Part shown: positions 6,733 to 13,781 of the stretch, piece after piece
Position numbering within the stretch: the stretch's first letter is position 1
Layout of the letters: each line of letters begins with the position of its first letter
Sequence record: HM173637
DNA from: Escherichia phage HK75
DNA: 36,661 nucleotides
Strand: one strand, 5' to 3'
Made by a program: the position numbers and the translations under genes
Notes under the pieces: model-generated
What the model was told of the DNA's origin: nothing
Database searches by the model: none
Seen by the model: only the letters and a program-made list of their open reading frames with translations

Positions 6733-7437
6733 ATGTCTGCACTTTATGAAAAATCGCAGCTGACGAAGATCCTTATTTCCTCCCTGCCGTCCACCAAAGA
6801 AACGATGGATTCCGCCACCTTTCTCGATCTGAGTTGCACCATCAAAGAAATTCAGTTCACTGGTGGCCAGAAGCAGGATATCGACGTAACAACACTTTGC
6901 TCTACCGAGCAGGAGAACATCAACGGCCTGCCTTCTCCGTCAGAAATCTCTCTGTCCGGCAACTTCTACAATAATCCAGCGCAGGACGCCTTGCGTGATG
7001 CGTATGACAACGACACCACTTACGGCTTCCAGATCATCTTCCCGTCAGGTAATGGTTTTAAGTTCCTGGCCGAAGTTCGCCAGCATACCTGGTCATCTGG
7101 TACCAATGGTGTTGTGGCAGCTACATTCTCACTGCGCCTTAAAGGCAAGCCTGTCCCGATTGACTCTGTACTTAAACTGACCACTGATCTTCCTTCCTCA
7201 CTGTCTGTAGCGGTGGGGGCTGCGATCAGCATGGCTGTAGTAGCTGCCGGTGGTAAGCCTCCGTATGCCTACACCTGGAAGAAGGCAGGTAGCACCGTCA
7301 GCGGGCAGACATCCGATACCTTTAATAAAGCCACCGCAGTTTCAGGTGATGCAGGTGATTACACCTGTGTGGTTACGGATTCTTCTTCTCCGGTCAAAAC
7401 GGTTACCTCAGCTGCCTGCACCCTTACTATCAGTTAA
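6733..7437 (+). CDS. Major tail protein with C-terminal Ig-like domain (lambda V-like)
   Basis: 234 aa; Ser/Thr/Val-rich C-terminal segment resembling a Big_2 Ig-like domain; precedes G/T chaperone genes. Confidence 0.7.
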   Translation: MSALYEKSQLTKILISSLPSTKETMDSATFLDLSCTIKEIQFTGGQKQDIDVTTLCSTEQENINGLPSPSEISLSGNFYNNPAQDALRDAYDNDTTYGFQIIFPSGNGFKFLAEVRQHTWSSGTNGVVAATFSLRLKGKPVPIDSVLKLTTDLPSSLSVAVGAAISMAVVAAGGKPPYAYTWKKAGSTVSGQTSDTFNKATAVSGDAGDYTCVVTDSSSPVKTVTSAACTLTIS

Positions 7438-7471
7438 TGGAGATGCCGGGTTGTCCCGGCATGGATAAGCG

Positions 7472-7858
7472 ATGTCGCAAACTTTAAAACAATTAGCCAT
7501 GGCGAAAATGGCTGGCTTTCGCCATAAGACGGTCGTTGTCCCTGAGTGGGAAGGTGTCAAAGTGGTTCTCCGTGAGCCGTCAGGTGAAGCCTGGCTGCGC
7601 TGGCAGGAGGTGGTGAAAGGGGGGGCCGACGATGAAAATGTGTCGGTATCGGAAAAGGCGCACCGTAATCTTTGCGCTGACGTGGTGCTCTTCATTGACG
7701 TTCTGTGTGACACCGATAAGCAACCGGTATTCAGCGTAGACGAAGAAGAGCAGGTGCGTGAAATCTACGGGCCCGTGCACTCACGTCTGCTCAAACAGGC
7801 GCTTGACCTGATCAACAATGCGGACGAAGCGCGGGAAAAGTCTCAACCCCCGGCGTAA
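7472..7858 (+). CDS. Tail assembly chaperone (lambda G-like)
   Basis: 128-aa ORF between major tail and tape measure genes; ends next to a slippery GGGAAAAG run. Confidence 0.6.
   Translation: MSQTLKQLAMAKMAGFRHKTVVVPEWEGVKVVLREPSGEAWLRWQEVVKGGADDENVSVSEKAHRNLCADVVLFIDVLCDTDKQPVFSVDEEEQVREIYGPVHSRLLKQALDLINNADEAREKSQPPA
7833..7840 (+). other. Candidate -1 programmed frameshift site (G to G-T fusion)
   Basis: cGGGAAAAG at the 3' end of the G-like ORF; the downstream ORF is open in the -1 frame from at least 7831. Confidence 0.45.
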
Positions 7859-7866
7859 AGTTTCTG

Positions 7867-8145
7867 ATGTCGCTTGCGCTCCGGATGGGGCGCACGCTCT
7901 CAGAGCTTCGGCAGAATATGACGGCAAGCGAGCTTCTGATGTGGATTGAGTACGACAGGCAAAGCCCGGTTGGCGATATTCGCGGTGATATCCATGCAGC
8001 GCAGATTGTCTCTGCCATCTACGGCTCGCAGGGGGCAAAAGTACCGCTGGACGATGCGATCCTGCGCTGGGGTGGTGATGAGCAATCAGAACCGAAGGAC
8101 CCGTTTGCAGGGCTTGAGGCGGCACTTACAGCTGCGACACAATAA
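7867..8145 (+). CDS. Tail assembly chaperone T-segment, probably expressed only as G-T frameshift fusion
   Basis: 92-aa ORF in the -1 frame relative to G, no convincing own RBS, conserved G/T arrangement of tailed phages. Confidence 0.5.
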   Translation: MSLALRMGRTLSELRQNMTASELLMWIEYDRQSPVGDIRGDIHAAQIVSAIYGSQGAKVPLDDAILRWGGDEQSEPKDPFAGLEAALTAATQ

Positions 8146-8202
8146 TTGCTTCACATGCCTTCAATGTAGCGATACGCTCTTTCCTTAAGTAAAGGAGGCG
8201 TT

Positions 8203-8391
8203 ATGGAACCACTGGTAGTAGTGTTTGGAATATTCGGCTGGCTGATAAATCTAATTGTGATTTTTTATTTATTACGGTTTAGCACAAGGGCAAATGAACA
8301 AGTTGAAGCCCTTAAAGAGATAAATAAAAAGCAAGATGCGCAAATAGATTTATTAATACAAGTCGCTCACCAAAGAAAAGACAGTTTATAA
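8203..8391 (+). CDS. Small single-pass membrane protein (moron A), unknown function
   Basis: 62 aa; AAGGAGG RBS at 8192-8198; N-terminal hydrophobic helix then charged tail with RFSTRANEQVEALKEI motif; AT-rich; own terminator. Confidence 0.5.
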   Translation: MEPLVVVFGIFGWLINLIVIFYLLRFSTRANEQVEALKEINKKQDAQIDLLIQVAHQRKDSL

Positions 8392-8397
8392 CTCACG

Positions 8398-8422
8398 ACC
8401 CGCTATCAAGCGGGTTTTTTTT
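8398..8422 (+). terminator. Intrinsic terminator after moron A
   Basis: ACCCGC-tatcaa-GCGGGT followed by TTTTTTTT. Confidence 0.6.
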
Positions 8423-8434
8423 ATGGGTGAAAAT

Positions 8435-11400
8435 ATGGCTACGTTGCGCGAACTGATCATCAAAATATCTGCAAACTCTCAGTCATTCCAGTCTGAAATT
8501 TCTCGTGCTTCAAGAATGGGGAATGACTATTACCGGGTAATGCAGACTGGAGGACGCCAATCGGCCGCAGCTTCGCGTGAAACTCAGCGTGCCTTGGCTG
8601 AGGTAACTAGTCAAATAAACACCGCGAAGGCCTCAGCACTGGGAATGGCTGGTGCATTTGCTGGAGCATTTGCGACTGGTCATCTTATATCGCTGGCCGA
8701 TGAATGGAGCTCTGTTAATGCCAGGCTAAAGCAGGCTTCCCAGTCGTCAGATGATTTCACGGAGTCCCAGCGGGCGCTGATGGATATTAGCCAGCGAACC
8801 GGAACCGCCTTCTCTGATAATGCGAGTCTTTTTGCGCGTTCAGCCGCTTCTATGCGTGAATATGGCTACAGTTCAGAAGAGGTTCTGAAGGTAACCGAGG
8901 CTATATCAACAGGGCTTAAGCTGTCAGGCGCAAGCGCGTCTGAAGCGAGTTCGGTAATCACGCAGTTCAGCCAGGCTCTGGCGCAGGGTGTTCTTCGAGG
9001 CGAGGAATTTAACTCCGTCAACGAAAACGGTGATCGAGTTATCCGTGCTCTTGCCGCAGGGATGGGTGTAGCTCGTAAAGATCTGAAGGCAATGGCCGAT
9101 CAGGGGATGCTAACCGCAGATAAAGTTGTCCCGGCCCTGATAAGTCAACTTGGCACTATGCGTGGTGAATTTGAGGCAATGCCGCAGACCGTTTCTGCTG
9201 CCACGACGAAAGTCGAAAATGCTTTCATGGCATGGGTAGGTGGCGCTAATGAAGCCACTGGTGCGACAAGTACTCTTGTTGCCGTATTGAATACGGTTTC
9301 TGACAATATAGACACTGTGGCTACGGCTGCCGGAGCTTTGGCTGCGATAGGTGGAGCTCGCTATCTTGGAGGGATGTTTGGCGATCTTGGGAACCAGACG
9401 GCGCAATTAATAGATGCCAGAAAGAACGAAATTGCGCTCGCAGCTGCAAGGGCTGAATCTGCTACCCAATCACAACGCAAGGCCGCCGCCGATGCTATTG
9501 CTGCTGAGCGAGCTTACCAGCTTGCTCAGTCAGAACTTGTGCTGGCAAAGAATACTAATGCTGAGGCTACTGCCACTCAAAATGCCATATCCAAGCGCCG
9601 GGCAATGATTACAGCAAATGCGGCACTGGTACAGTCAAACAGAGCCGTTGCAGCCTCTCAGCAGGCACTTAACTCTGCAACATCAGTGCTGGGGCTTGTA
9701 AAAACTGGCGCTACGGGTCTTTTGTCGTTAGTTGGTGGTTTGCCAGGAATTTTAATGTTGGGTGCTGGGGCGTGGTACACGATGTATCAACGCCAAGAAC
9801 AAGCCAGGGAATCTGCAATCCAATATGCGGACACAATCGAGCAGGTACGAGATAATCTGAAATCAATGTCTCAGACGCAGATATCCGCCAACCTTGGACA
9901 GGCGAATATTTCACTGGATGCTCAGAATAGTGCGATTGAACAGCAGAAGCAGAAAGTTGCTGAATTATCAAATCAACTTTATAACGCAAAATTAGCAGCC
10001 AATTCTGCTTCAGAGGGGACATGGCTGTATAACGATGCGGTTGAGAAAGCCGCAGACTTTGCTTCAGAACTTGCGGTTGAAGAAGGCCGACTTGAGCAAA
10101 TGCTCAATAAAAGAAAGCAAACACAACAGTTAATAAACGACATAACTGATCAGGCTATAAATAAAACAGTAGAAATGGCTGGCGCCGTAAGTTCTCTTAC
10201 AGAGATGTATGACCGGCTGAACAAGGTTTCCAGACAGTCTACAGCAGTGTCCCCACCAAAATATGCAGGACCTGTACTTCCTGCGCTTGATAATAAGCAA
10301 CAACAAGCTATTGAGAAAGCACAGCGACAGCTTGAGCTATCTGGCCTTCAGGGTTTGGATAAGGCTCGAAAGCAGGCAGAATTCGATGCATCTGATCTGA
10401 ACCTTCCAGCTGGTTGGCGTGAGAAATATGTCAGCATGGAAGTTGAGTCTGCCAGGCAATTACAAGCAATTCGTAACTCAAGCCGCCATAAGGGTGGAAA
10501 ATCCGAGGCGGAAAAAACAGCTGATACCTATGACAAGCTGATCAAGCAGCAAAAAGAGCAGATCGCTCTGCAAGGGCAGAATACCGAGCTGGCAAAGGTT
10601 AAATATCAGGTAAGCCAGGGTGAGCTTTCTACGCTAAGTCAGGCCCAGAAAGCCGAAGTTATGCGTAATGCTGCTCTCATCGATCAGGTTAAATTGCGTG
10701 AGCAACTGCGAAATTACGAAGCCAACCTTGCTGACAGTAACGACAGCGCCCGCGCAGCCAATGAAGCGCAACTGCTGGGCTACGGGCAGGGAACCAGGTT
10801 CCGTGAAAGACTTCAGGAGCAGTTCAATCTGCGTAAGGAGTTTGAGCAGAAGAATACCGATCTTCTCCGCCAGCGTCAGGCTGGTGAAATCGACGAGACG
10901 TTCTATCAGCAGGGGCTGGCACTTAATAAGCGCTACCTCGAAGAGCGCCTGCGCGACCAGGAGGGATATTACGCAGCTTCTGATGCGCAGCGTGACGACT
11001 GGATGACGGGACTGTCTGAGGGTTATGCGAACTGGGTGGATGAAGCGACAGATTACTCCTCCATGGCAGCTGACGGGATGAAGCAGGCAATGGGTGGGGC
11101 GGTAACTTCGATTACTGACATGCTCAATGGTAACGTCGACAGCTGGAAGGACTGGGGTGTCAGCGTACTGAAGATCATCCAGAATGTTCTGGTCAATATG
11201 GCTGTTGCTAACGGCGTCAGTTCAATTGGTTCTCTCTTCAGCTTTGGCGCATCTTCCGCCGCTGCCGCCAGTAGCGGTACTGCAATTCAGAACGCTGGCG
11301 CGAACTTCACCTTTAACGCGAAGGGTAATGTTTACGACTCTCCGTCCCTGAGCGCATACAGCAATGGCGTGTTTCAGACCCCTCAGCTTTTTGCTTTTGC

Positions 11401-13556: not shown

Positions 13557-13781
13557 ATGTATACAGTTGGGTTTGGTTGGATCTTCGTCGGTATTTTTAT
13601 TGGGTTAATTCTCTGGTTTTTCATCAACCGCGCCAGCGTCAGAGCGAACAGGCAGGTTGAATTACTTGAGTCTATCGACCAGAAATTATCAAAAATAGTA
13701 GATCCAAACTTCGAGGCAAATAACAAAGACCAGTCGAAAGAAAACTACCTTGAAGAAGCAAGGAAAAAAGCTGGGCTTTGA
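13557..13781 (+). CDS. Small single-pass membrane protein (moron B), paralog of moron A
   Basis: 74 aa; AAGGAG RBS at 13545-13550; TM helix then NRASVRANRQVELLESI motif shared with the 8203-8391 protein; own terminator. Confidence 0.5.
   Translation: MYTVGFGWIFVGIFIGLILWFFINRASVRANRQVELLESIDQKLSKIVDPNFEANNKDQSKENYLEEARKKAGL

Follow-up and report, generated by a model that had tools for sequence, protein, structure and literature searches.

The G/T tail chaperone junction of Escherichia phage HK75 and its putative A_AAG frameshift signal

Escherichia phage HK75 carries, 3' of its tail tube gene and 5' of its tape measure gene, two overlapping reading frames that resemble genes G and T of lambda, and the question they raise is how the second frame is reached when the slippery-looking sequence in the overlap, GGGAAAAG at 7833-7840, does not stand in the canonical register. 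The window analyzed is the whole 36,661-nt stretch of record HM173637, and all positions refer to it. The element is the annotated recoding site of genes 13 and 14 of HK97, a standard model phage, and is as such already known. It is very likely that a low-level -1 shift, in which tRNA-Lys re-pairs from AAG to AAA, gives gp13 together with a minor 224-aa gp13-14 fusion. The added value of the present analysis is modest and consists of a family-wide view in which A_AAG is the sole invariant part of the shift signal; beyond the efficiency of such a weak site, itself a minor question, the finding raises no new one.

The gene pair and its existing annotation

The G ORF starts at ATG 7472 and stops at TAA 7856-7858, and the -1 frame (T) is open from 7807, preceded by TGA 7804-7806, and ends at TAA 8143-8145; the two overlap by 52 nt including the G stop codon, or by 49 nt up to where that codon starts (Table 1). 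The original prediction, of a G/T-type chaperone pair with a T-like ORF open in the -1 frame ahead of the G stop, is borne out by these positions and by the Pfam families of the two products. The G ORF matches PF06222 (Phage_TAC_1) over its full length (E = 1.6e-60), and its product is identical at 127 of 128 residues to HK97 gp13 (PDB entry 2OB9, 'Tail assembly chaperone'); for the T-frame ORF the Pfam match is 'Minor tail protein T' (PF06223, E = 1.5e-20). Both parts also align to PHROG 14766, a 224-position profile of the fused GT protein, in which G covers positions 1-127, the T-frame peptide from 7837 covers positions 123-224, and the junction falls at 123; homology of the two parts was found via PHROG 344 and 337 as well. 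The GT fusion corresponds to join(7472..7840, 7840..8145), 224 aa.

Table 1. Features of the G/T junction and its partner genes in the HK75 window
Feature	Coordinates	Strand	Basis
Major tail tube protein with C-terminal Ig-like domain	6733..7437	+	Pfam Phage_TTP_11, Phage_tail_3, Ig_3
G-type tail assembly chaperone ORF, zero frame, 128 aa	7472..7858	+	ORF list, PF06222, PDB 2OB9
Overlap in which the -1 shift must fall	7807..7858	+	Frame translations, stop positions
Shift heptamer G_GAA_AAG	7834..7840	+	Codon layout, conservation, annotated fusion proteins
T-frame part of the fusion, VSTPGVKFLM... then lambda-T-like domain	7840..8145	+	PF06223, PHROG 14766
Conserved Met codon in the T frame (FLM motif), not considered a real start	7867..7869	+	SD and codon-substitution evidence
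Tape measure protein, 1092 aa	8423..11701	+	Pfam TMP_3, Phage_HK97_TLTM, Tape_meas_lam_C

The gene order is that of a lambda/HK97-type G/GT pair, with the overlapping ORFs between the tube and tape measure genes: the tube protein gene is followed by G, the T frame (7807-8145), a moron (8203-8391), and the tape measure gene, 3' of which stand lambda M-like, L-like, and K-like genes. The tube protein, whose equivalent in HK97 is annotated 'major tail subunit', is the presumed partner of the T domain, and the tape measure protein is the presumed partner of the G domain. The Ig-like domain of the tube protein spans approximately residues 154-224 (Pfam Ig_3, Ig_2, I-set).

Several other features were observed around these genes. 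The moron at 8203-8391, 3' of T and 5' of the tape measure gene, is that of HK97 gp15, for which PMC3594210 gives a role in superinfection exclusion; together with a second ORF at 13557-13781, which sits between the K-like and I-like tail genes, it forms a pair of paralogous small YebO-like membrane ORFs on the + strand (both phrog_5031, 43% identical over 44 aa). The chaperone genes are also flanked by G+C-rich hairpins at 7443-7462 and 8397-8416. The first, between the major tail gene and G, is called a 'putative terminator' in HK97, lacked a T tract in our scan, and could make the expression of G, T, and H lower than that of the tube protein; the second is a clear intrinsic terminator 3' of the gp15 moron.

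From 7400 to 8450, HK75 and HK97 are 99.7% identical, with 3 mismatches in 1051 bases and with identical coordinates and an identical site, and HK97 genes 13 and 14 are the same element; the two G proteins differ at a single residue, which is A52 in HK75 and G in both HK97 and 2OB9. Over the same interval HK633 is 100% identical to HK75, and across the first 24 kb HK633, HK446, HK106, and mEpX1 are each about 98% identical to it; the HK75 sequence is that of a mosaic relative and not of HK97 itself. In the HK97 record (GenBank AF069529), gene 13 is annotated at 7472..7858 as 'tail assembly chaperone' and gene 14 as a two-piece join over 7472..8145, 'translated due to a -1 frameshift'. An exact-sequence look-up in the protein collection found the fusion encoded by the HK97 DNA, ...NNADEAREK|VSTPGVKFLMSLAL..., as AAF31104.1/NP_037707.1, and HK75's own version of the fusion as the HK106 'tail protein' AFH20700.1, while fusions with the other junctions tried in that look-up (R|G, S|S, and PP|G) were not on record there. 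As AAF31104.1 is the exact K|V fusion, the depositors placed the shift junction at the Lys codon AAG 7838. Annotation of the T part is uneven among relatives: the proper join is given for HK97, HK106, and HK446; the HK633 record (JQ086377) omits T; the mEpX1 record (JQ182727) has a separate 279-nt T CDS, noted as frameshifted, that stands alone as 92 aa; and RefSeq/PGAP bacterial genomes (E. coli prophages) list T on its own (92 aa) as 'tail assembly protein T' or 'DUF4035'.

Register and conservation of the shift site

The zero-frame codons across the site are GCG 7829, CGG 7832, GAA 7835, AAG 7838, and TCT 7841, and the -1 frame reads GCG GGA AAA GTC. The register is therefore G_GAA_AAG and not G_GGA_AAG, and the original prediction was right both about the position of the sequence and about its unusual codon layout. 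The P-site half of this heptamer is not XXY, which sets it apart from the canonical X_XXY_YYZ form; it agrees instead with the NNA_AAG pattern, in which AAG is preceded by A. Re-pairing from GAA to GGA would entail a G:U mismatch at the second position, and only the Lys half can re-pair cognately (AAG to AAA). A_AAG at 7837-7840 is the sole Z_ZZN tetramer in register within the 52-nt overlap. The long + strand frames of the whole window contain in-frame A_AAG at a frequency of 0.0039 per codon, which corresponds to about 0.067 expected per 17-codon overlap; its presence here is thus only weakly significant by chance, and it is conservation across the family that makes the case decisive.

Among close viral loci (91-100% protein identity), 83 of 83 keep GCG CGG GAA AAG TCN CAA CCC CCG GCR TAA. 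For a broader view, a profile scan with one genome per species gave 48 loci at 47-93% identity, mostly from Enterobacterales; 45 of the 48 were intact, and these together with HK75 yielded 44 distinct sequences. All 44 have a zero-frame A_AAG at the homologous position and a -1 ORF of 93-102 codons that continues beyond the G stop. A_AAA_AAG is the heptamer in 26 loci, G_GAA_AAG in 9, A_GCA_AAG in 5, G_GCA_AAG in 3, and A_GAA_AAG in 1, so that 18 of the 44 members (about 40%) use a heptamer that fails the X_XXY_YYZ rule; gene callers seeking that form alone will miss HK97-type fusions. The invariant part of the signal is thus A_AAG, with a preceding codon that drifts among AAA, GAA, and GCA. 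Lys at the site is encoded by AAG in 44 of 44 loci, compared with 118 of 330 (36%) of the other Lys codons in the same genes, which indicates that AAG rather than AAA is selected at the shift codon. In three loci (L094, L095, and L109) no more than 7 nt separate the opening of the -1 frame from the G stop, so that a shift is possible solely on the heptamer, and in L109 that heptamer is G_GCA_AAG, on which the P-site tRNA cannot re-pair.

The three exceptions in the scan are instructive in their detail. In the degenerate symbiont Ca. Symbiopectobacterium endolongispinus (L120:1850-1900) the run is A9 where relatives have A8, and G and T are joined in frame as a 216-aa fusion (...AKKKVTQPGMQFLM...), in which ...KKKVTQPGMQFLM... 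is the predicted junction. Serratia sp. L9 (L119:1850-1900) has one A fewer, which places T in the +1 frame, and Leclercia NCTC13032 (L089:1790-1830) has an upstream indel inside G and keeps the shift site. Each of the three could represent decay, a homopolymer sequencing error, or a real variant.

Routes to the T frame

Which tRNA moves at which step, and how often, we infer as follows. Most ribosomes would stop at TAA 7856 and release the 128-aa chaperone, and a small fraction would slip back one base at G_GAA_AAG: tRNA-Lys (mnm5s2UUU) would leave AAG 7838-7840 and re-pair on AAA 7837-7839, after which reading would resume at GTC 7840-7842 in the -1 frame and continue to TAA 8143. The product would be a 224-aa G-T fusion, ...AREK-VSTPGVKFLM..., with a lambda-gpT-like C-terminal part, and the junction peptide expected from a shift at A_AAG is AREKVSTPGVKF. 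In E. coli a single tRNA-Lys reads both AAA and AAG. The shift would be driven by this tRNA because tRNA-Glu, on passing from GAA to GGA, is left with a second-position G:U and cannot re-pair cognately; most likely it is at best near-cognate during the shift. The site is accordingly of the A_AAG tetramer or NNA_AAG hexamer type and not one for a canonical tandem slip. An A_AAG that is kept while the preceding codon varies is what a shift driven by tRNA-Lys predicts, and the variation among AAA, GAA, and GCA in relatives lends support to the original suggestion that any shift here would be a single-tRNA slip on A_AAG or a noncanonical event.

An alternative is that translation starts anew at ATG 7867, for instance through reinitiation after TAA 7856, and yields T alone (92 aa), the overlap with G being incidental. 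The Met is invariant in the family, the G stop lies only 9 nt upstream from the ATG, and many automatic annotations carry just such an independent T of 92 aa ('tail assembly protein T'). Upstream from the ATG, no anti-SD duplex is better than -1.7 kcal/mol; this absence of an SD is weak evidence against initiation there, as several genuine starts in the HK75 window share weak SDs and some are equally poor. The codons 5' of the Met are more informative. In 22 loci where the G stop stands right after AAG, we compared T-frame codons 2-9 after the site: the summed entropy at the first, second, and third codon positions was 5.55, 6.44, and 10.25, Pro was found in 21 of the 22 loci with all of CCT, CCC, CCG, and CCA in use, Phe (TTT/TTC) in 22 of 22, and Leu, with four codons, likewise in 22 of 22. 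There is thus a coding constraint on the T frame 5' of its first Met even where G has already stopped, with third-position entropy about twice that of positions 1 and 2, and this third-position-rich variation argues that the eight codons between the site and Met 7867 evolve as coding sequence and hence would be translated from upstream. The -1 relation and A_AAG are moreover kept in all 44 distinct loci, fused GT profiles and proteins are on record, and lambda T is made solely as GT (reviewed in PMC5009743). Independent translation of T, the outcome that would have told against the original prediction, is therefore disfavored by the coding signature in the aligned codons, and we consider it improbable.

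A shift elsewhere in the overlap is less probable still. The candidate considered is the C run CAA_CCC_CCG (7844-7852), on which slippage of a Pro tRNA (C_CCG) would give the fusion ...EKSQPP-GVKF.... This run of five C's falls within the overlap and persists in members of the HK97 clade with as little as about 70% identity, and C_CC.G has been found to shift at 1.8-3.6 fold above background in E. coli when followed by a strong pseudoknot (PMC4066793). However, most family members lack the run, with their G stop immediately 3' of AAG, and yet keep T in the -1 frame; its conservation in the HK97 clade follows from the T frame, where it encodes a conserved Pro-Gly; and the protein collection contains the K|V fusion but not SQPP|GVKF. 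The overlap holds no other shift-prone tetramer in register, and C_CCG at 7849-7852 was rejected.

Slippage by RNA polymerase on the A run, producing mRNA with one extra A so that the ribosome need not shift, has very little to recommend it: relatives carry A7-A8 at the site and the A9 of L120 with its in-frame fusion indicates that the run length does change in DNA, but the HK75 run has four A's whereas transcriptional slippage is reported on about eight or more (PMC3711429), the G_GAA_AAG and GCA_AAG clades keep the arrangement with runs of A3-A4, and a G that invariably closes the A run (AAG, not AAA) is the signature of a ribosomal and not a polymerase event (PMC4066793).

Efficiency, stimulators, and known systems

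Given a ribosomal shift at A_AAG as the preferred reading, its efficiency at G_GAA_AAG is probably low. In E. coli no other tetramer comes near A_AA.G in its tendency to shift, and it reaches up to 5.6% with a strong pseudoknot, but in vivo without a stimulator it gives approximately 0.15% against a background of 0.11%, which is barely above it (PMC4066793). IS1222 uses a site of the NNA_AAG type, and B. subtilis cdd contains one as well; how efficiently such sites shift depends on which tRNA reads the preceding codon (PMC5009743). In a reconstituted E. coli system, G_GAA_AAG itself served as an unfavorable control and gave mainly zero-frame product, the stated reason being the second-position mismatch of tRNA-Glu on GGA (PMC6924986). 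Two members of a cluster that its authors label Phage_TAC, with proteins described as similar to a phage HK97 protein, have been tested in reporters, for which the text gives 6% and 7%; the inserts carried A_AAA_AAG (tabulated at 7%) and G_GGA_AAG, GAA_AAG not being among them (PMC3711429). The sequence 3' of the site in these inserts resembles that of HK75. In a text search of the literature for GGAAAAG, PMC6924986 alone was relevant among the matches listed, the rest being seemingly unrelated to phage tail frameshifting.

No flanking stimulator of the kind associated with A_AAG sites was recognized in HK75 by folding, RNAalifold, or anti-SD analysis. Folds of 7841-7930 and 7800-7960 were no more stable than those of shuffled sequences (z = -0.03 and -0.11), and in an alignment of 35 family sequences that ran from the site to +90, RNAalifold found no consensus pair. 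Upstream, the best anti-SD duplex was -4.3 kcal/mol, formed by a weak GGGA abutting the site, and none was present at the spacing seen in dnaX, whose element scores -7.4 kcal/mol at -17. The hairpin GCGCUCC-GGAU-GGGGCGC (7876-7893) was considered as a stimulator and rejected; it starts 36 nt 3' of the site, and relatives with Lys in place of Arg disrupt it and show no compensating change. This hairpin is inside the T coding sequence (LALRMGR) and is kept in many relatives, and is probably a by-product of the amino acid sequence. A stop codon stands directly 3' of AAG in 28 of the 44 relatives and may act as a stimulator in those; in HK75 the next codon is TCT. We regard it as possible, although rather unlikely, that the HK97 and GCA_AAG clades either reach a lambda-like GT:G ratio of a few per cent via an unrecognized stimulator, from a site that hardly slips when isolated, or assemble tails with a GT:G ratio much lower than lambda requires. 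Candidate stimulators would be the nascent G C terminus, the conserved 3' context UCN CAA CCC CCG, and an mRNA-rRNA contact. If this were true, either outcome would be a small new fact on how the chaperone ratio is set. Xu et al. are said to have confirmed frameshifting experimentally in 2004 for several phages beyond lambda.

Among known systems, E. coli dnaX provides the heptamer A_AAA_AAG, which is found at the homologous position in 26 of the 44 HK75 relatives; dnaX, however, has an upstream SD and a downstream hairpin, whereas HK75 has neither, and the HK75 heptamer is not A_AAA_AAG. IS1222 (G_CGA_AAG) and B. subtilis cdd (A_CGA_AAG) resemble HK75 in that only the Lys tRNA re-pairs cognately and the third base of the preceding codon has to be A, a site class described as NNA_AAG or A_AAG by Licznar et al. 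2003 and Sharma et al. 2014 (PMC5009743, PMC4066793). They differ from it in using CGA (inosine wobble) and/or a defined downstream stimulator, where HK75 has GAA and none was found.

A further parallel is lambda gpG/gpGT with its programmed -1 frameshift (Levin, Hendrix and Casjens 1993; Xu, Hendrix and Duda 2004, 2013, and 2014, as summarized in PMC5009743). As in HK75, the lambda pair lies between the tube and tape measure genes with a -1 shift close to the 3' end of G, and the A-site codon is Lys AAG; the T domains of the two phages are homologous (PF06223). The G proteins belong to different Pfam families (PF06222 in HK75), and the P-site codon is GGA in lambda (G_GGA_AAG) but GAA in HK75, which makes tandem cognate re-pairing impossible and the site intrinsically much less slippery. 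In lambda, many G and few GT molecules bind the tape measure protein via their G parts and the T domain recruits the major tail protein, and neither G nor GT is present in the finished virion (PMC5009743). The G:GT ratio that results from the frameshift is essential for siphophage tails of correct length in lambda. The same logic of abundant G and rare GT applies to HK75, where, by analogy, G parts may coat the tape measure protein and the rare T domain may bring in the major tail protein, with a fixed low GT:G ratio that would be set by the frequency of the shift.
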